Source: Candidatus Hydrogenedentota bacterium (GTDB lineage: Bacteria; Hydrogenedentota; Hydrogenedentia; Hydrogenedentales; JAEUWI01). Taken from it: DNA of 64,000 bases. The notes below the pieces were generated by a model. That model had not been told where the DNA came from and made no database searches. It saw only the letters and a list, made by a program, of their open reading frames with translations. How positions within the stretch are numbered: position 1 is the stretch's first letter; each line of letters opens with the position of its first letter. Position numbers and translations under genes: made by a program. Positions 9,664 through 16,337 of the stretch are shown piece by piece. Where the stretch lies: contig JAXMOL010000022.1 in assembly GCA_034669905.1 (NCBI GenBank), positions 45,007-109,006 on the forward strand, read 5' to 3'.

Positions 9664-11424
9664 TCAGTTGGCAGGTACGCGGATATCGTCCTTGGTGAAC
9701 TCCGAATCCAGGTGAATCCAGGTCTTATCGATATCGACGGGGCCTGTCATCAGCAATTCGCTCGTGATATCGGCCGAGTAGATGGGGGCGCTCAGGGCCA
9801 GCACTTCCACGGGGCCATATCCCTTGTTGGGGTTGGTCGGCTGCCGAATGACGCGTACCCGATAGGAACTTTCGTATTCCGTCTGCTGGGGCGAGGCGAA
9901 GGAAAAGCGGTCGCTATCGACCACCTGGGTCAACACCGGGTAACCGTCGCGCAGTAACTGCACTTTGGCGCCTTGGGCGTTAAAGACGGTTACGTGAAAG
10001 GCCACCTCAATACGGAGCGGCACAGCGCCCCCCACACCCACGTCCATCTTATTGTCCACGAGGGCATCAGCACGAAAGTCGATTTCTACCCCGCCAATTT
10101 CGCTGCTGACGAAAGTACGTCCCATTCGCAATCCATGAAGAATACCTTCCAGCGACTTGTTCGGTGCTTTCACCCAGGTAACCGGGGCCCCCATTGGCTT
10201 GCTGCGCTTGTCAATCATGCCCCCGGCAATGGGGCTACTTACCGCCCCCCGCCCAAGCTCATAGTCCCAGAAGAGTGCCGCCTGATCATTGGCGGAAACA
10301 CTCACGTTCTTCCGCTTCGCGGCGGCGGCCGCTGCCTGGGTCTTATCGGATACCGCCGCTGCCGCTGCGATAGAACGCTTCAATTTGCCGTTCTCCCGGA
10401 CTTTCTCGGCTTCAGAGAGGTCAGACAGGTGAAGCGGCGGTGCGGCCCGCCAGGGGCCGTTCCAGACCTGTACGGCATTCACAAAGCCAAGCCCCCAACG
10501 CCAGGGCGCTTCGGAAAAGCAGGGATGGGCGATGGCAAAGACACCTCCCTGACTCTGGATACGGATACACTCCGCCTGGGCCGCTTCCCGCGTCGTGGGC
10601 ATGCCCGGCTCGGTGGCGGGGCCATAAATCAATCCAATCCCCTGTTCTCTGGTGCCCCAGGCCAACGCCGGGATCAGGACCACACTGTCCGACTTGAAAC
10701 CCGGATCATAGTAAGCCTCCATGGTATTCAGGTCGGTAATCGCAAGGAAGTCGAGGCCCGCTTTCTCCGCACGGGCCACCAGCTCAGCCACCGTCTCCTC
10801 CCCACCCCCATAGGTGCTTACGGCATGCAGTTCGCCCTTGTACCATTTGTCCTCTTCGGAAAAAACCCGCTGATCAAAAACTATCGGACGATGTCCCGGG
10901 ATACTGCGCGGATCCTCCGGGTCGGTCCCCACGATCAATTCGACCTTATCGATGGCCAGATCTTTATCGAGATCATAATCGTGCACGGTGAGTTTACCGC
11001 TGGCGCCTTCGAGCAGATTCACCAGCACATAGGACGTGTCCCCTTCGCTCACGGAGAGCTCCTGGGCATGCACCATGACGGGAACCTTTTCATCATAGAC
11101 ATAGACGTAGGCGTAGTACGCGCCCACCCCCGGGTGTATGGTCTGGAGTCCCGGTGCAATCTCGAACGCCGTTTTCCGGAAGTCGCTGACGTCTTGAAGT
11201 TCCAGTCGGGAGGCCAGGCTGCGACCATTCACATCGGACACGTCGATTTCCACCGTGCCTTTTGCGGAGGACGACGGCGCGGTGGCCGGCTTCGGCGTTG
11301 GAATCGAAGTGCCCTGCTCCGCGGATTCTGACGTGGCCTCGCTTGAATCGGCCGACGGCGTGGTGGGTGTCGAAGCACATCCGGCTACCAACAGTATGAT
11401 GAAACTACACAATCCGAGTCGCAT
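9664..11424 (-). CDS. Lipoprotein with a CehA/McbA-like PHP domain whose metal ligands are degenerate
   Basis: Lipobox VAGC; WYKGELH, GLDFLAITD, AHP and LRMGRTFVS; DYDLDKD...ELIVGTDP Ca-binding-like motif. Confidence 0.75.
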   Translation of the reverse strand: MRLGLCSFIILLVAGCASTPTTPSADSSEATSESAEQGTSIPTPKPATAPSSSAKGTVEIDVSDVNGRSLASRLELQDVSDFRKTAFEIAPGLQTIHPGVGAYYAYVYVYDEKVPVMVHAQELSVSEGDTSYVLVNLLEGASGKLTVHDYDLDKDLAIDKVELIVGTDPEDPRSIPGHRPIVFDQRVFSEEDKWYKGELHAVSTYGGGEETVAELVARAEKAGLDFLAITDLNTMEAYYDPGFKSDSVVLIPALAWGTREQGIGLIYGPATEPGMPTTREAAQAECIRIQSQGGVFAIAHPCFSEAPWRWGLGFVNAVQVWNGPWRAAPPLHLSDLSEAEKVRENGKLKRSIAAAAAVSDKTQAAAAAAKRKNVSVSANDQAALFWDYELGRGAVSSPIAGGMIDKRSKPMGAPVTWVKAPNKSLEGILHGLRMGRTFVSSEIGGVEIDFRADALVDNKMDVGVGGAVPLRIEVAFHVTVFNAQGAKVQLLRDGYPVLTQVVDSDRFSFASPQQTEYESSYRVRVIRQPTNPNKGYGPVEVLALSAPIYSADITSELLMTGPVDIDKTWIHLDSEFTKDDIRVPAN

Positions 11425-11728
11425 TCGGTGCTCCTATCCTGAGATTTCATGTGCCCATATACCCGCGTCGCAGGCGTCATGTCCCTGCGCTTCGAACCCG
11501 CTGCGTTCGTCCCATCCAGGCTTCCGCATTTCCGCGGACCTTCTCACGTCAACGTCTTACCCGGCGCACGGGTTGACCACGAAGCAACGTGGTTGAAGGG
11601 GTACTGCCTCCGCAGCAGCGCACGACACAACAGAAGGCGATTATACCCTGTGGTGAATCAAACAACAACGGTCGCGCCTCCTTCCGGGAAGCGCCGGATT
11701 TCCCAAAAAAACATTTGCAGAAATGAAC

Positions 11729-11758
11729 TTGCCATAAACTCCTTGTGCAGTTTAGAAT
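11729..11758 (+). promoter_or_regulatory. Sigma70 promoter upstream of gntR
   Basis: TTGCCA (11729-11734), N18, TAGAAT (11753-11758). Confidence 0.6.
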
Positions 11759-11940
11759 ACATAGGGAGCTGGTTCTTTATGTAATACTACAGTTCGGGGC
11801 GTTGTCGATAGTTCAGAATTCGTTTCCGACGGTTTGCACACGTTGTAGCTTGAGGAAATGAAACAAACGAGTGCACCGTACTTACTCCGGTGTAGAAAGC
11901 AGGTCCGATGCCACGCCAAAAACACCAATCCAGCGAAGAA

Positions 11941-12387
11941 ATGCTTCAGATGCTCTCCAGCATCGATATCCACAGCAACGTTGCCGTGTATCTGCAGATT
12001 GAAAATCATGTTCAATTTGCGATTACCGCCGGCCGTCTCACCGCCGGAGAACAGCTCCCCTCCGTCCGTGAGTTGTCCGAACGGCTCGACGTCAATCCCA
12101 ACACGGTGGCCAAAGCCTATCGCGATCTGGAAGTCATGGGATTGCTCTATACCCGCCGTGGAAAAGGCGTGTTCGTAAAAGACGGCATCGAGAAGAAATG
12201 CCGTGAGGATTGTATGGACCGTATCGTGGCCCGCATCCATGAAGTCATGGTCGAAGCCCGGGTGGCCGGCATGAACCCCAAGGTGGTCAATGAAATTGTG
12301 GCCAAGTGCCTGGCCAACGGTGCCAGCCCCTATGCCCCCCCGCCCGCCTCCCTGTTGAAAATGGCCCGAAAAGCGACCCGCAAATAA
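11941..12387 (+). CDS. GntR-family regulator (YtrA-like, short C-terminus)
   Basis: VYLQI, GEQLPSVRELS, VNPNTVAKAYRDLE and RRGKGVFV; start uncertain (11908, 11941 or 11950). Confidence 0.93.
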   Translation: MLQMLSSIDIHSNVAVYLQIENHVQFAITAGRLTAGEQLPSVRELSERLDVNPNTVAKAYRDLEVMGLLYTRRGKGVFVKDGIEKKCREDCMDRIVARIHEVMVEARVAGMNPKVVNEIVAKCLANGASPYAPPPASLLKMARKATRK

Positions 12388-12412
12388 CCCCCTGCCTCCC
12401 ACCTGATTTCTT

Positions 12413-12446
12413 GCCGTTGCTGCGACTGCAGCAGCGGTCTTTTTTT
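12413..12446 (+). terminator. Intrinsic terminator after gntR
   Basis: GCCGTTGCTGC-gact-GCAGCAGCGGT followed by C and a T-run. Confidence 0.8.
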
Positions 12447-12685
12447 GCTGTCAACTTTAGACCCCTGTGCATCGTTATATCGGTAGATGGCAACACAATG
12501 ATCCATTGCGTCCTATCCGGCTCCGACCATGAAGGCCCCCCACGGGTCTAAGGCCTTGTATTCTGGGCCTGTCATACCGGACTGACGAAAATGTACAACA
12601 AACTGTCAGTCCCCTTAACCCCATATATGCCAAGGATTTCCCATCGCCCCCCATGGCACATCGACAGAAATTTAACACATAACTC

Positions 12686-12714
12686 TTGACATTCCTGTTT
12701 AATTCATGTACACT
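12686..12714 (+). promoter_or_regulatory. Near-consensus sigma70 promoter for the recombinase-domain gene
   Basis: TTGACA (12686-12691), N17, TACACT (12709-12714). Confidence 0.85.
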
Positions 12715-12898
12715 GAGGGTGTAATTCTTGGGAAAGTATTAACTGCGGACTTGCCGGATTCCCCGGCACCTTGCGATTCGTTTCGTCTCGCGGACGTAAC
12801 AATTCAGACCTCATACGTTCTTATTTGCCTTCGAAAGTCATGTGGACGTTCGAAGACCTGACGAGCGCAAGTCAAACTCATGTGGAGGTGCGAAACAT

Positions 12899-13423
12899 AT
12901 GAGTACGGAAACACATCTTGGAACGGAAGTAGAAGTTAGTGAAGGCCCGGGTCGTCTGACCCACGGGGCCAAAGTGAAACGTGGCCAGCTCACTTCGGTG
13001 CAGCAGGGCCGCTATGGAACAGGTCCCGCCCCCTATGGCTACCGGCGCGGACTGGAAGGCGAAAAGCCCCTGGTCGTAGACGATCGGGAAGCCGAAGTGG
13101 TACGCCTTATTTTCCGCGAATACCTGGTAACCCGGAGCACCGGGAAAGTGGTGAACTATCTCCACAGCAAGAACATTTTTACCCGCAAGGGGAACAAATG
13201 GTCCCGTCAGGCGATTGCAATCATCCTCTCCAACCGGACCTATCGCGGTCGCGTCAGCTATGGCGATTTGGAGACGGAAGGCCTGCATGAGCCCATCATC
13301 GAGCCGGCCCTCTTTTACAAGGCCAATGCCCTCAAGGAACGCAAACGGCGTCAGTCGAAAGACCAATTGCCCATGGCGTCTGCCCCGAAGAAGCCGGGGA
13401 ATTTCCGATGGGTCGCTCCCTGA
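12899..13423 (+). CDS. Stand-alone Recombinase (large serine recombinase DNA-binding) domain protein with no catalytic domain
   Basis: GPAPYGY, EAEVVRLIFREY, WSRQAIAIILSNRTYRG and HEPII; GGAGG RBS; no YxRVS resolvase motif upstream. Confidence 0.85.
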   Translation: MSTETHLGTEVEVSEGPGRLTHGAKVKRGQLTSVQQGRYGTGPAPYGYRRGLEGEKPLVVDDREAEVVRLIFREYLVTRSTGKVVNYLHSKNIFTRKGNKWSRQAIAIILSNRTYRGRVSYGDLETEGLHEPIIEPALFYKANALKERKRRQSKDQLPMASAPKKPGNFRWVAP

Positions 13424-13444
13424 CCTGAAGCTCCCAGCATTACG

Positions 13445-13492
13445 AAAAAGACCGCTGCGGAATCCAAGTGATTCTACAGCGGTCTTTCTTTT
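13445..13492. terminator. Bidirectional intrinsic terminator between convergent genes
   Basis: AAAGACCGCTG...CAGCGGTCTTT stem with an A-run before and a T-run after. Confidence 0.85.
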
Positions 13493-13538
13493 GTAAGCGT
13501 TTGACTAAGAAGACGTAAGCAAGCGGTGTACCCGTGGC

Positions 13539-14198
13539 TCAGCGACCGGTCCACACATCGGGTTCGTTCGGCTCACTCAATTCGATACGGTCATCTTCCG
13601 GCAACAACAACTCCGGACTGTCGGCATCCTGGGCACCCGTGGTAGGTTCCGGCTCCGCAACGGGCGTGTCGGCGACCTTGGCTTCCGCCTCCGCCTCATC
13701 GGCCTCATCAGGATTTTGCAATTCCGCTTCGGGCTCCGCGTCCACGGCCTCCCCTTCCCCCGCGCCTTCGCCCTCTGCTCCCGAACCATAACCGACCGTC
13801 TCTTCCGGATATGCTCCCTTATCCACACCGTACTGATTGTCGTCGCTCGACTCCCAGCCATAGGGGTCATCACCGTATTCGTCGATTTCCGTGCCGGCCA
13901 TCACCTTCCGGTCCTCCTCGTTCAGAGAAGGATTCCCCGGCTCAGACCCCTCGTCGTCGTCCCCGTGGGTCAGCGAATCAATATACTTTTCCGGATCAAT
14001 CTTGGAGAGTTGGTCCATCTCTTTTTTGATGGGCGTCAACTCTTTGGTCAAATCCGTCTTCACATCGTCCACATACCCCCGCAAATCACGCACTGTCCGA
14101 ATAACCAGTTTGGCAAAATCGGGAAACTTCTCCGGTCCGATTACCACCAGCGCAATACCGGCGATGAGAACCATCTCGCTGAAACCTATTCCAAGCAT
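13539..14198 (-). CDS. tatB: Twin-arginine translocase TatB with a long acidic tail
   Basis: MLGIGFSEMVLIAGIALVVIGPEKFP; adjacent to tatC. Confidence 0.88.
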   Translation of the reverse strand: MLGIGFSEMVLIAGIALVVIGPEKFPDFAKLVIRTVRDLRGYVDDVKTDLTKELTPIKKEMDQLSKIDPEKYIDSLTHGDDDEGSEPGNPSLNEEDRKVMAGTEIDEYGDDPYGWESSDDNQYGVDKGAYPEETVGYGSGAEGEGAGEGEAVDAEPEAELQNPDEADEAEAEAKVADTPVAEPEPTTGAQDADSPELLLPEDDRIELSEPNEPDVWTGR

Positions 14199-14212
14199 GG
14201 GATTTGTACTCC

Positions 14213-15067
14213 TTATTCAGCCTGGGCTTCTTCTGCCCGGCGACGTCGAATGACGAGATAAGACAACCAGATGCTCCCTTCGTAGAGCCCATAAAGGGGC
14301 ACGAGCATGAAGGTCATGGTGATGGGGTCGGGCGGAGTGAGCATGGCCGAACACACCGCCAACCCGACTATGGTTATCTTACGGTACTGTTTCAAGGTGT
14401 CGGGGGTCAAAATGCCGAGATACACCAGAATCAGCACCACCATAGGAAATTGAAAGGCAATACCAAAGGCCAGCAGGGCCTTGAAAATCATCGAGACGGT
14501 CTCGTTCATCCGAAGCTGAACACTGACACCCTCGGGCACGAAATTGGCCAGATAAGGCAGCACAAAGGGCAACACACCGAAATAGGCCACCGCCACCCCC
14601 GCAAAGGCCAGCAAACTACAACCTACGAGCAGAAACTGAGCTGCCCGTCGCTCCCGATCGTGGAGTCCGGGAAAAATGAAGGCACATAGCTGGAAAAGTA
14701 TCACCGGGATGGCAAATAGCAATCCGCCATAACCCGCGATCTTCAACTTGACGAATACGGGCTCCAAGGGGTTAAGAACGGTCCAATTCGCGGACTTCAA
14801 CGCCCCATCATCGCTTTCCACCGCCATATCGTTGGACGGCACCGGTCCCCCCTCCACCGTAGGCGCGCCGCTGCTGACATTCACATTGGGAATCGTCGTG
14901 TCCAGAATCTGCAAGGGGCGGGCAAGGGCGGCGAAGATAAAATCCGACAGGATGTAACATATCAGCACACCCACCATCACGGCGATACCTGAGCGAATCA
15001 AACGAACCCGCAACTCACCCAGGTGCTCGGTAAAACTCATTCGCGCTTCATCATCCGACACTGCCAA
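14213..15067 (-). CDS. tatC: Twin-arginine translocase TatC
   Basis: MSFTEHLGELRVRL, FIFPGL, FGIAFQFP, LTPPDPIT and LYEGSI. Confidence 0.95.
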   Translation of the reverse strand: MAVSDDEARMSFTEHLGELRVRLIRSGIAVMVGVLICYILSDFIFAALARPLQILDTTIPNVNVSSGAPTVEGGPVPSNDMAVESDDGALKSANWTVLNPLEPVFVKLKIAGYGGLLFAIPVILFQLCAFIFPGLHDRERRAAQFLLVGCSLLAFAGVAVAYFGVLPFVLPYLANFVPEGVSVQLRMNETVSMIFKALLAFGIAFQFPMVVLILVYLGILTPDTLKQYRKITIVGLAVCSAMLTPPDPITMTFMLVPLYGLYEGSIWLSYLVIRRRRAEEAQAE

Positions 15068-15184: not shown

Positions 15185-15538
15185 TCAGAATGCGCCTCCC
15201 TGTGCCGACCGTTCCTCGTCTTCGTGGTGGCCACCTACCGTGGGCGGAATACCCGTCGGATCCGCCTTCTCCACCCACTCTTTCAACGCTTTTCCCGGTT
15301 TAAAGATGGGAATACGCTTTTCTGAGATAGGCACCGAGTCCCCCGTGCGCGGATTCCGTCCCAATCGGGCATCACGAATCTTCACCTCAAAGACACCGAA
15401 GTTTCGGATCTCCAGGCGATCACCATGAGACAGGGCCTCGGTAATAGTATCGAGGGTCGTCTGCACCACATCGGACACTTCATTCTGGGTGAAGCCTAAC
15501 TGCTCCGCTACGCTGATCACCAATTCACGCTTGGTCAC
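15185..15538 (-). CDS. HU/IHF-family DNA-binding protein
   Basis: TKRELV, EIRNFGVFEV, GRNPRTG and FKPGKALKE. Confidence 0.95.
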   Translation of the reverse strand: MTKRELVISVAEQLGFTQNEVSDVVQTTLDTITEALSHGDRLEIRNFGVFEVKIRDARLGRNPRTGDSVPISEKRIPIFKPGKALKEWVEKADPTGIPPTVGGHHEDEERSAQGGAF

Positions 15539-15589: not shown

Positions 15590-16168
15590 TTAGAGACCGA
15601 GCGGTGCACGCCAGGCATTTGCAAGACCACCTGGGTTAATGAGGATAAAGCCTACAATGAGCGCCAGGATACCGAAGAGAATCAGGATCGTCTTCGTATT
15701 TTTGCTCATACCGCCACCACCGCCGCCGCCGCCAGCCATCTCACCGCCGGTCGGGGGAATAAAGATTTTCTCGCCTGCTTCGGCCCGCGCGCGCTTGTCG
15801 TCTACAGCGCCGAGGGTTTCATTGATGGCGATAAAGGCCCGGTGCCATTCCGTCTGAAGCTTCTTCACAGCCACTTCGGACTGGGAGTAGATAGCTTCAA
15901 GGCTGGTCGCACCAGAAACGATGTTCATCGTATTGTTGTCGAGCTCGTAGTCGTTGGCCAGGGTTTCCTTGAGCACCTTGTGGGTGCGCGCCAACTTACT
16001 CTTGATCTTCAGAAACTGGGTCTCCAACTCGGCCTTATTGATGCCGGGCTCAGGATACCGCGTAAGAATCTGATTGAAAAGCATCCAGTCATTCATGAAT
16101 TCCCGGCACAATTCCACGCGCCGCGATAACTGGTCTACAATCTTTTGTTGTTTTTTGCTAAGGGCCAT
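15590..16168 (-). CDS. Hypothetical helical protein with Gly linker and C-terminal TM helix
   Basis: Natural-looking helical sequence from MALSKKQQK; GGGGGGGG linker; hydrophobic C-terminal segment. Confidence 0.75.
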   Translation of the reverse strand: MALSKKQQKIVDQLSRRVELCREFMNDWMLFNQILTRYPEPGINKAELETQFLKIKSKLARTHKVLKETLANDYELDNNTMNIVSGATSLEAIYSQSEVAVKKLQTEWHRAFIAINETLGAVDDKRARAEAGEKIFIPPTGGEMAGGGGGGGGMSKNTKTILILFGILALIVGFILINPGGLANAWRAPLGL

Positions 16169-16337
16169 TGTTTGTAACCACTCCGCGTTGTAGTGTCCCC
16201 ACTCAGTAGAGCCTAATCTAGCATACGAGCAGGACAAAGTCAACCGGCACAATCTGATTTAAGTCCGCAGATTGTAACCGCTTACAGATGTCTTGATTCC
16301 ATGACAATTATAGCTGCAAAACCGTAAAAACACAAAT

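Follow-up and report, generated by a model that had tools for sequence, protein, structure and literature searches.

What does the site-reading domain of a serine integrase do when it is encoded on its own, among the housekeeping genes of a bacterium? The question is raised by the window, a 64,000-nucleotide stretch of DNA from a Candidatus Hydrogenedentota bacterium, in which ORF prediction, Pfam, NCBIfam and a structural model delimit a stand-alone recombinase-domain protein of 174 aa (P0001), encoded at 12899..13423 on the forward strand. PF07508 (Recombinase) is its sole Pfam domain, matched over residues 63-148 at 67.1 bits (E 1.8e-18; the curated cut-off is 21.1 bits), and neither PF00239 nor PF13408 is found in the protein by Pfam, even at E<=1. 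NCBIfam aligns residues 26-122 with positions 144-239 of CcrB and residues 24-154 with positions 133-256 of CcrA, which corresponds to the recombinase domain preceded by the last part of helix E. The chain (19.7 kDa, pI 10.1) reaches its C-terminus 19 residues past the recombinase domain and has no cysteine at all, so that a zinc ribbon is impossible. A sequence-only reading of the locus had described just this, a recombinase domain with the end of helix E and neither resolvase domain nor Zn ribbon, and had expected PF07508 without PF00239 or PF13408; that is exactly what Pfam, the NCBIfam limits and the missing cysteines give. The names under which databases list this protein, 'recombinase family protein' and 'site-specific DNA recombinase', wrongly suggest a mobile element. 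The G+C content of the gene is 0.577, against 0.587 for the window.

An alternative in-frame GTG at 12842 would give a product of 193 aa. Upstream of the ATG, however, the nine genus loci differ by indels whose lengths are not divisible by three, and conservation starts at the ribosome-binding site; because these upstream indels break the frame and conservation begins only there, the ATG is the start codon. Residues 1-18 are variable and poorly modelled (block pLDDT 61-71). They are followed by a near-invariant core, residues 19-155, which comprises the end of helix E, a linker, a four-stranded sheet and a four-helix bundle, and then by a basic tail. Of helix E, the dimer/tetramer interface in integrases, only about 14 C-terminal residues (22-35) are left, and residues 37-47 form a Gly/Pro-rich linker.

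Does this module still look able to bind DNA? An AlphaFold model built on a 144-row alignment reached pLDDT 90.7 and pTM 0.79 (a shallower alignment of 23 rows gave pLDDT 56, an unusable model), with helices at residues 22-35, 62-78, 81-90, 103-116 and 136-155 and strands at 48-50, 58-60, 118-121 and 124-127. Foldseek against the PDB returned 23 matches at E<=0.001, all of them serine integrases and nearly all DNA-bound, beyond which matches drop to E>0.2. The top match was 4kis (A118/LI integrase; E 3.9e-8, rmsd 1.8 A over 129 columns), and the others include 6dnw, SPbeta 9dxh, Bxb1 9iu8, PhiC31 4bqq and 9ter; a HMMER sequence search of the PDB finds the same integrases. In the structural description given by Rutherford et al. 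2013 (PMC3783163), the recombinase domain is made up of helix E's C-terminal end and a four-stranded sheet in a four-helix bundle, with an HTH-like core and a helix E-beta6 linker running along the minor groove. The contact area described there covers 13 bp, with direct major-groove contacts, from helix H, to only 3 bp. The modelled helix at 22-35 with its four strands and four helices reproduces the make-up that this description gives (PMC3783163). The recognition-helix region, T95-Q104 with N99 in it, is invariant across the phylum, and the base-contacting pair Tyr207-Asn208 of LI, in its own chain numbering, maps tentatively on G98-N99 in a gapped region of the alignment. Prediction of a homodimer, from two copies with the alignment, scored 0.00 and gives no verdict. 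The fold match to DNA-bound 4kis, together with the retained helix-E end, linker and recognition-helix region, makes it likely that the 174-aa product binds DNA.

Is the gene integrase debris, or does it work for its host? Of 135 Hydrogenedentota genomes, 124 have an orthologue (E<=1e-5) at 61-97% identity, as do 84 of the 86 high-quality ones. The 11 genomes in which the gene was not found are all fragmented assemblies, two of them 95-96% complete, and five no-match genomes (230-910 contigs) searched again with a profile did not yield it either. A set of 41 relatives contained 36 orthologues, with open frames mostly of 160-230 aa. The gene is nearly always single copy in the phylum and never a full-length integrase. 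Four orthologue rows were picked because their frames exceed 300 aa: in three of them the tool read through a stop codon, and the fourth (G030, 377 aa) is partly duplicated in tandem and has no other domain than PF07508. Separate full-length integrases of ~500-620 aa are present in some relatives and are only ~30% identical to the 174-aa protein. In a FastTree tree of the domain region of 144 proteins, the sequences of the phylum form one clade (support 95, stem 0.4), although the tree has few columns and most of its forks are unresolved. End branches within the clade measure 0.01-0.33, against a median of 0.59 over all rows of the tree; the clade includes P0132, whose C-terminal half is apparently frameshifted.

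The 23 sequences compared share 88 invariant columns, with almost no change anywhere between R19 and R151. The dN/dS check proposed along with the sequence-only reading gave a median of 0.032 in the genus (Nei-Gojobori), below gntR (0.089), tatC (0.088) and tatB (0.165). The two closest loci differ at 48% of synonymous sites and show no amino-acid change in core residues 19-152; at the order level, synonymous sites are saturated (pS 0.6-0.79) and pN is 0.05-0.08. The gene is under very strong purifying selection. A yardstick is provided by the IHF-type protein encoded nearby in the same genomes, with identities of 79-95% in the genus, 56-78% in the order and 48-50% in family f13, where the recombinase-domain protein shows 87-97%, mostly 78-89%, and 67-76%, respectively. 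The recombinase-domain protein is thus more conserved than an IHF-type nucleoid protein encoded 2 kb away. Kept almost unchanged and in single copy by nearly every genome of the phylum, the gene is, to judge from these comparisons, a working host gene and not integrase debris.

The locus had been read as a housekeeping region without mobile cargo, and its genes encode an epimerase, a CehA-like hydrolase, GntR, TatB, TatC, an IHF/HU-type protein, TrpG and TrpE. The upstream neighbour is a gntR-family gene (11908..12387, forward strand) for a 159-aa protein of the short YtrA/PmtR-like type, with a promoter-like site found by consensus scan at 11729-11758 and a terminator at 12413-12447; the genes for the CehA-like hydrolase and the epimerase lie 5' of it. 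Downstream come convergent tatB and tatC, followed by the IHF/HU-type gene (PF00216; 15185-15538, ~2 kb downstream), a gene for an unknown 220-aa protein, and trpG/trpE. None of the loci examined showed an integrase, transposase or phage gene. Over the 26 loci examined (20 + 6 in two sets), the most conserved neighbour is gntR, which lies upstream on the same strand in 15 loci from many families; tatB and/or tatC follow downstream in 11, and the alternatives at that position are nrdD, an isochorismatase gene (three loci), an SMC/RecN-like gene (one locus) and fmt. The two deepest-branching genomes have neither gntR nor tatB/tatC beside the gene. A coordinate comparison places an IHF-type gene within 4 kb on the same contig in 11 of 36 orthologue-bearing genomes; the genome studied here has two IHF/HU-type genes in total.

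The gene also carries its own signals for transcription and translation. A promoter, a GGAGG ribosome-binding site and a terminator had been proposed for it, and all three were located, the interval 12686-13492 running exactly from promoter to terminator. The promoter, found by consensus scan, is of the sigma-70 type (TTGACA-17-TACACT, 10 of 12 consensus matches; 12686..12714, forward strand), and GGAGG stands at 12884-12888, 10 nt before the ATG. The intrinsic terminator (13450..13492, forward strand) is a long G+C-rich hairpin at 13450-13484 followed by TTTCTTTT; folding of 13424-13500 returns this hairpin, followed by UUUCUUUU, at -31.9 kcal/mol (z -6.3, with none of 200 shuffles as good). 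A simple scan missed the terminator because its loop is long, and because AAAAA precedes the hairpin it could also serve the convergent tatB.

How much of this promoter region is conserved? In 19 compared loci from several families, both the -35, extended as AACTCTTGACAT, and a -10 of the form TAnAnT are retained, in the pattern (A/T-rich 5-mer)-T-C/A/G-TTGACA-T, 17 nt, TAnAnT, and their conservation exceeds the expectation from saturated synonymous sites. The A/T-rich stretch GAAATTTAACACATAACTC lies directly 5' of the -35 (12667..12685, forward strand; read by eye) and may act as an UP element; an A/T-rich pentamer next to the -35 is visible by eye in 19 of 19 loci. In most loci an A-tract can also be seen by eye ~10 nt further 5'. 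The extension was considered as an operator and rejected, as similar words are found at other promoter-like sites: AAACTCTTGACA recurs at several such sites of the genome, and words like AACTCTTGACAT with <=1 mismatch number 19 there against ~33 expected. The extension therefore looks like general -35 context, the form that a strong -35 region takes in this genome. Farther upstream, genus comparison brings out Box A, TGACGAAAATGTACA (12583..12597, forward strand), present ~100 nt 5' of the -35 in all nine genus loci (eight exact, and L003 with one mismatch). Box A was not found in other families, nor was any upstream box shared across families; a regulon search met Box A and AAATTTAACAC only once each in the 7.4-Mb genome and turned up no candidate binding motif that repeats.

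Between promoter and conserved protein core lie ~175-260 nt in most families (340-400 nt at L017 and L021; the leader is shorter at L016), and the leader should accordingly be long, ~180 nt in the genus. In the window the predicted 5' leader, its start deduced from the -10, would span ~178 nt (12721..12898, forward strand). Genus comparison shows a small conserved hairpin in it at 12752-12768, two pairs of which have compensatory changes within the genus. A second hairpin of 9 bp, ACUCAUGUG/CAUAUGAGU (12876..12904, forward strand), found by folding and in the genus loci, encloses the GGAGG and has the AUG among its paired bases. Apart from one substitution, at L004, it does not vary in the nine genus loci; it is absent from other families, and may damp translation. 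No structured riboregulator is claimed for the leader, for which the support is weak: RNAalifold on 10 loci yields only 19 pairs in three helices with a covariation term of +0.17, and the single leader sequence folds no better than shuffles (z -1.25). A search of 11500-14500 against Rfam at E<=1 gave no match. Codon adaptation relative to 22 ribosomal-protein genes puts the gene at the 61st percentile and the IHF-type gene at the 64th, figures that are uninformative because codon bias is weak in this genome and ribosomal proteins are barely above background. One metatranscriptome contains a relative's 438-base contig that spans 12995-13425 and departs from the sequence here at 38 positions, almost all of them third codon positions, while short contigs of high depth from the same RNA run cover 12876-12912; these contigs are no expression evidence, because they give no level, strand or ends and DNA carry-over is possible.

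Where might such a gene have come from? A HMMER scan of 1.84 billion cluster representatives found six proteins at E<=1e-30, which constitute the orthologue group, and then, after a gap, hundreds of proteins at 35-50% identity; the best 150 matches are mostly 250-300 aa long, with the recombinase domain at the C-terminus and nothing after it. The ESM Atlas clusters closest to the 174-aa protein consist of 'Recombinase domain-containing' proteins of 166-175 aa, for which there are hardly any taxon records. Outside the phylum, its nearest relatives are proteins of ~260 aa (P0127, P0131, P0133, P0137, P0146, P0148 and others, at loci L024-L038), with 40-49% identity over the recombinase domain and E values of 1e-30 to 1e-22. 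They share with the 174-aa protein the limits of the recombinase domain and the lack of a zinc ribbon, but they keep an N-terminal region of ~120-150 residues, and gntR lies beside none of their loci. PF00239 is detected in three of the 11 aligned, at 23-35 bits, near its cut-off, and where the catalytic serine would stand, one of the 11 has Ser, three have Thr and the others have another residue or a gap, in an N-terminal alignment that is poor. Scanning one genome per species gave 16 sister loci, of which 12 are labelled Planctomycetota. The ~260-aa proteins thus appear to be a sister family whose catalytic domain is degenerate and inactive, and the Hydrogenedentota gene would represent a later stage, at which that degenerate domain had been lost.

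The genome itself holds no trace of the missing part. Searches of 12380-12900 for a resolvase remnant, with tblastn from 144 relatives (many of these queries carry N-terminal domains) and with an HMM in six frames, found only short chance matches, the best at E 0.011 in the 521-base database. PF00239 has no match in a six-frame search of the whole genome (7.44-Mb assembly, 95.7% complete), a search whose control was positive in 12 of 14 known genomes, and PF07508 has exactly one, which is this gene. A profile search at E<=1 found no gene in the genome resembling the N-terminal domain of the sister family; the sister-family profile, which includes that domain, matches only the recombinase-domain part of this gene, at model positions 136-273, so that there is no split-integrase partner. 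Lacking a catalytic domain, a zinc ribbon, cysteines and any resolvase encoded in the genome, the protein is unable to cut or rejoin DNA by serine-recombinase chemistry. The sequence-only reading had held that the gene is co-opted and not a broken integrase, and had looked to resolvase remnants upstream or full-length orthologues as evidence to the contrary. The upstream searches found no remnant and the orthologues are not full-length integrases; its claim is upheld by the phylum-wide single copy, a dN/dS of ~0.03, the conserved promoter, a genome without the catalytic domain and the housekeeping neighbours.

What, then, is the protein for? The best explanation, which we hold to be about as likely as not, is a DNA-binding protein of the chromosome without catalytic activity that serves as a global regulator or as a nucleoid-type factor. 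Such a protein would take hold of roughly one turn of DNA in the manner of the A118/LI integrase-attP complex: the helix-E remnant and Gly/Pro linker (residues 22-47) would occupy the minor groove, and next to it the major groove would receive the helix-turn-helix-like core (about residues 81-111). Since the N-terminal domain that makes dimers is missing, a monomer is the probable binding form. Once bound, the protein would organise host DNA or regulate it; the gntR gene so often found beside it might control the recombinase-domain gene or work with its product. More tentative is the fuller account in which a nucleoid or global regulatory factor of the Hydrogenedentota arose stepwise from the DNA-binding domain of a phage-type serine integrase, the catalytic domain first dying, a stage seen in the Planctomycetota relatives, and then being lost; the product would since have become no less indispensable, and would evolve no faster, than a core nucleoid protein. 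The near-invariance of T95-Q104 accords with a single conserved and specific target no less well than with unspecific nucleoid binding.

The main rival reading, on balance an unlikely one, is that of a dedicated sequence-specific transcription factor whose one regulon is small and conserved, which may form a circuit with GntR and possibly represses its own promoter. The gntR gene directly upstream on the same strand at 15 of 26 loci, in many families, would be accounted for in this way, as would the invariant recognition-helix region and Box A, a conserved asymmetric 15-mer that every locus of the genus has 5' of the promoter; a leader of this length, and a hairpin that covers the ribosome-binding site, point to control of expression. 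However, ordinary factors evolve faster, and the adjacent GntR is only 60-78% identical where the recombinase-domain protein is 82-90% identical. Box A is limited to one genus whereas the DNA-contact region is the same phylum-wide, it has no second copy in the genome, and the two deepest genomes lack an adjoining gntR.

Could the conservation reflect something other than DNA? Since it extends over the whole surface, the main constraint may lie with a protein partner such as RNA polymerase or the replisome rather than with DNA alone. As an accessory subunit of some conserved machine (RNA polymerase, replication initiation, chromosome segregation or Xer-type resolution), the protein would use its recombinase-domain fold mainly as a protein-binding or DNA-tethering module, and conservation that exceeds that of a nucleoid protein and takes in nearly all core residues is typical of several interfaces. 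This role is nonetheless improbable: no conserved neighbour belonging to such a machine was seen, and the downstream genes vary, from TatBC and NrdD to isochorismatase, SMC/RecN-like and Fmt.

Three roles had been put forward in the sequence-only reading; regulator and nucleoid factor are both still candidates, and the third, a dominant-negative inhibitor of incoming integrases, fares badly. As a defence gene, the protein would act as a decoy that blocks the att sites of incoming serine integrases, or would poison the integrases themselves, and it does carry the domain that these use for att-site recognition. A core, single-copy gene with a dN/dS of 0.03 is unlike defence genes, evolving far too slowly for an arms race; it is present in a genome without any serine integrase, and with only ~30% identity the att sites of the relatives' integrases would not be shared. 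PADLOC had no match for the 174-aa protein, and no defence island lies at the locus, which leaves this role very improbable. That the gene is a decaying integrase fragment (a pseudogene) or half of a split integrase, as its content, the middle third of an integrase, might suggest, can practically be dismissed in view of the dN/dS of 0.03, the phylum-wide conservation, its own promoter, ribosome-binding site and terminator, the absence of a resolvase domain from the genome and from the upstream sequence, and the lack of integrase features in the four orthologue frames picked at >300 aa.

The preferred reading, a non-catalytic DNA-binding protein of the chromosome, can be set against known systems. 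With the large serine integrases (4kis, 6dnw, 9dxh, 9iu8 and 4bqq, and, by NCBIfam, CcrA/CcrB and XisF) the protein shares fold and domain limits as well as the family motifs GPAPYGY, W-S-R, N-x-T-Y-x-G and G-x-H-E-P-I-I. It differs from them in having neither the catalytic N-terminal domain nor the zinc-ribbon/coiled-coil domain, and in being a single-copy, vertically inherited host gene without att sites or a mobile element; identity is only 22-27% to solved integrases and ~30% to the integrases of related genomes. HU/IHF nucleoid proteins offer a functional analogy only: the 174-aa protein is likewise small, basic, lineage-core and very conserved, and its promoter looks strong, but its fold is unrelated to theirs. 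Domesticated DNA-binding factors from mobile elements also keep the recognition module without the chemistry and are inherited vertically under purifying selection. Nuclease-dead TnpB-like repressors are examples of domestication, as is Fis, a stand-alone HTH nucleoid protein. In the present case the source is different, namely the recombinase domain of a serine integrase.

To our knowledge, the recombinase domain is known only as the att-site-reading part of serine integrases. No description of a stand-alone recombinase-domain host protein was found in the literature searched, a scope that leaves out subscription journals. In its treatment of serine recombinases, a review of mobile-element exaptation (PMC8987985) deals with them only as active invertases and resolvases. 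What is new here is the dN/dS comparison with the IHF yardstick, the linkage to gntR, the conserved promoter and the genus-level non-coding blocks, along with the lack of an N-terminal-like partner gene and the degenerate sister family, mainly in Planctomycetota.

In this almost uncultured phylum, then, the recombinase-domain fold occurs as a free-standing, vertically inherited and extremely constrained host protein, and its gene can be used as a Hydrogenedentota marker. A natural, stable and putatively monomeric recombinase domain could aid the study and re-engineering of site recognition by integrases, and another phylum possibly preserves an intermediate stage of its domestication. If the protein is a regulator or nucleoid protein, it would bring a new fold to the few families of bacterial chromatin proteins and global regulators, as the first chromatin or regulatory protein with the recombinase-domain fold, and would be a clean case of the DNA-binding module of a mobile element turned to a core function of its host.

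A conserved element precedes the promoter of the recombinase-domain gene (12899-13423, plus strand): box A, TGACGAAAATGTACA, at 12583-12597, roughly 100 nt 5' of the -35 hexamer. Each of the nine genus loci carries it, eight exactly and one (locus L003) with one mismatch, including two loci that have no adjacent gntR. It occurs only once in the 7.4-Mb source genome, and none was found in other families. The word AAACTCTTGACA is recurrent at promoter-like sites on several contigs of the source genome (G000), for example at C1:114658, C5:66379, C9:25611, C21:67605 and C42:51456, and this recurrence suggests an extended -35 consensus of the organism's housekeeping sigma factor.

Downstream of the promoter, a 9-bp helix (12876-12904) encloses the GGAGG ribosome-binding site and pairs the start codon. 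Around this helix a block of about 45 nt is nearly invariant within the genus, while the remaining leader diverges. In a mangrove metatranscriptome, represented by contigs that cannot show RNA level, strand or ends, short high-depth contigs have their ends exactly on the helix block (12876-12912).

A relative genome, G030, carries a tandem partial duplicate of the gene's C-terminal part (L012:2040-2165, residues 111-155; 87-93% identity), directly after the orthologue and within a 377-codon open frame. The source genome has two IHF/HU-type genes, one at 15185-15538 (minus strand) and the other at G000:C17:79261-79548; among the 36 relatives having an orthologue, 11 have the former no more than 4 kb from the recombinase-domain gene, so that this gene makes up a loosely conserved neighbourhood with gntR, tatBC and ihf. 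A 220-aa ORF (15590-16252, minus strand), located between trpG and the IHF-type gene, has an eight-glycine run and a hydrophobic segment at its C-terminal end, and no match in Pfam or NCBIfam. A 586-aa predicted lipoprotein (9664-11424, minus strand) has a CehA/McbA-type metallohydrolase domain by NCBIfam and no Pfam match at E<=1e-5.

Outside the phylum, the nearest relatives are proteins of about 260 aa (P0127, P0131, P0133, P0137, P0146 and P0148; loci L024-L038, mostly Planctomycetota genome records), in which a degenerate N-terminal domain precedes the recombinase domain. PF00239 is weak or undetectable in this family, the catalytic serine position is unconserved across it, and none of its proteins has a zinc ribbon. 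The family may be a second instance, at an earlier stage, of serine-recombinase domestication.
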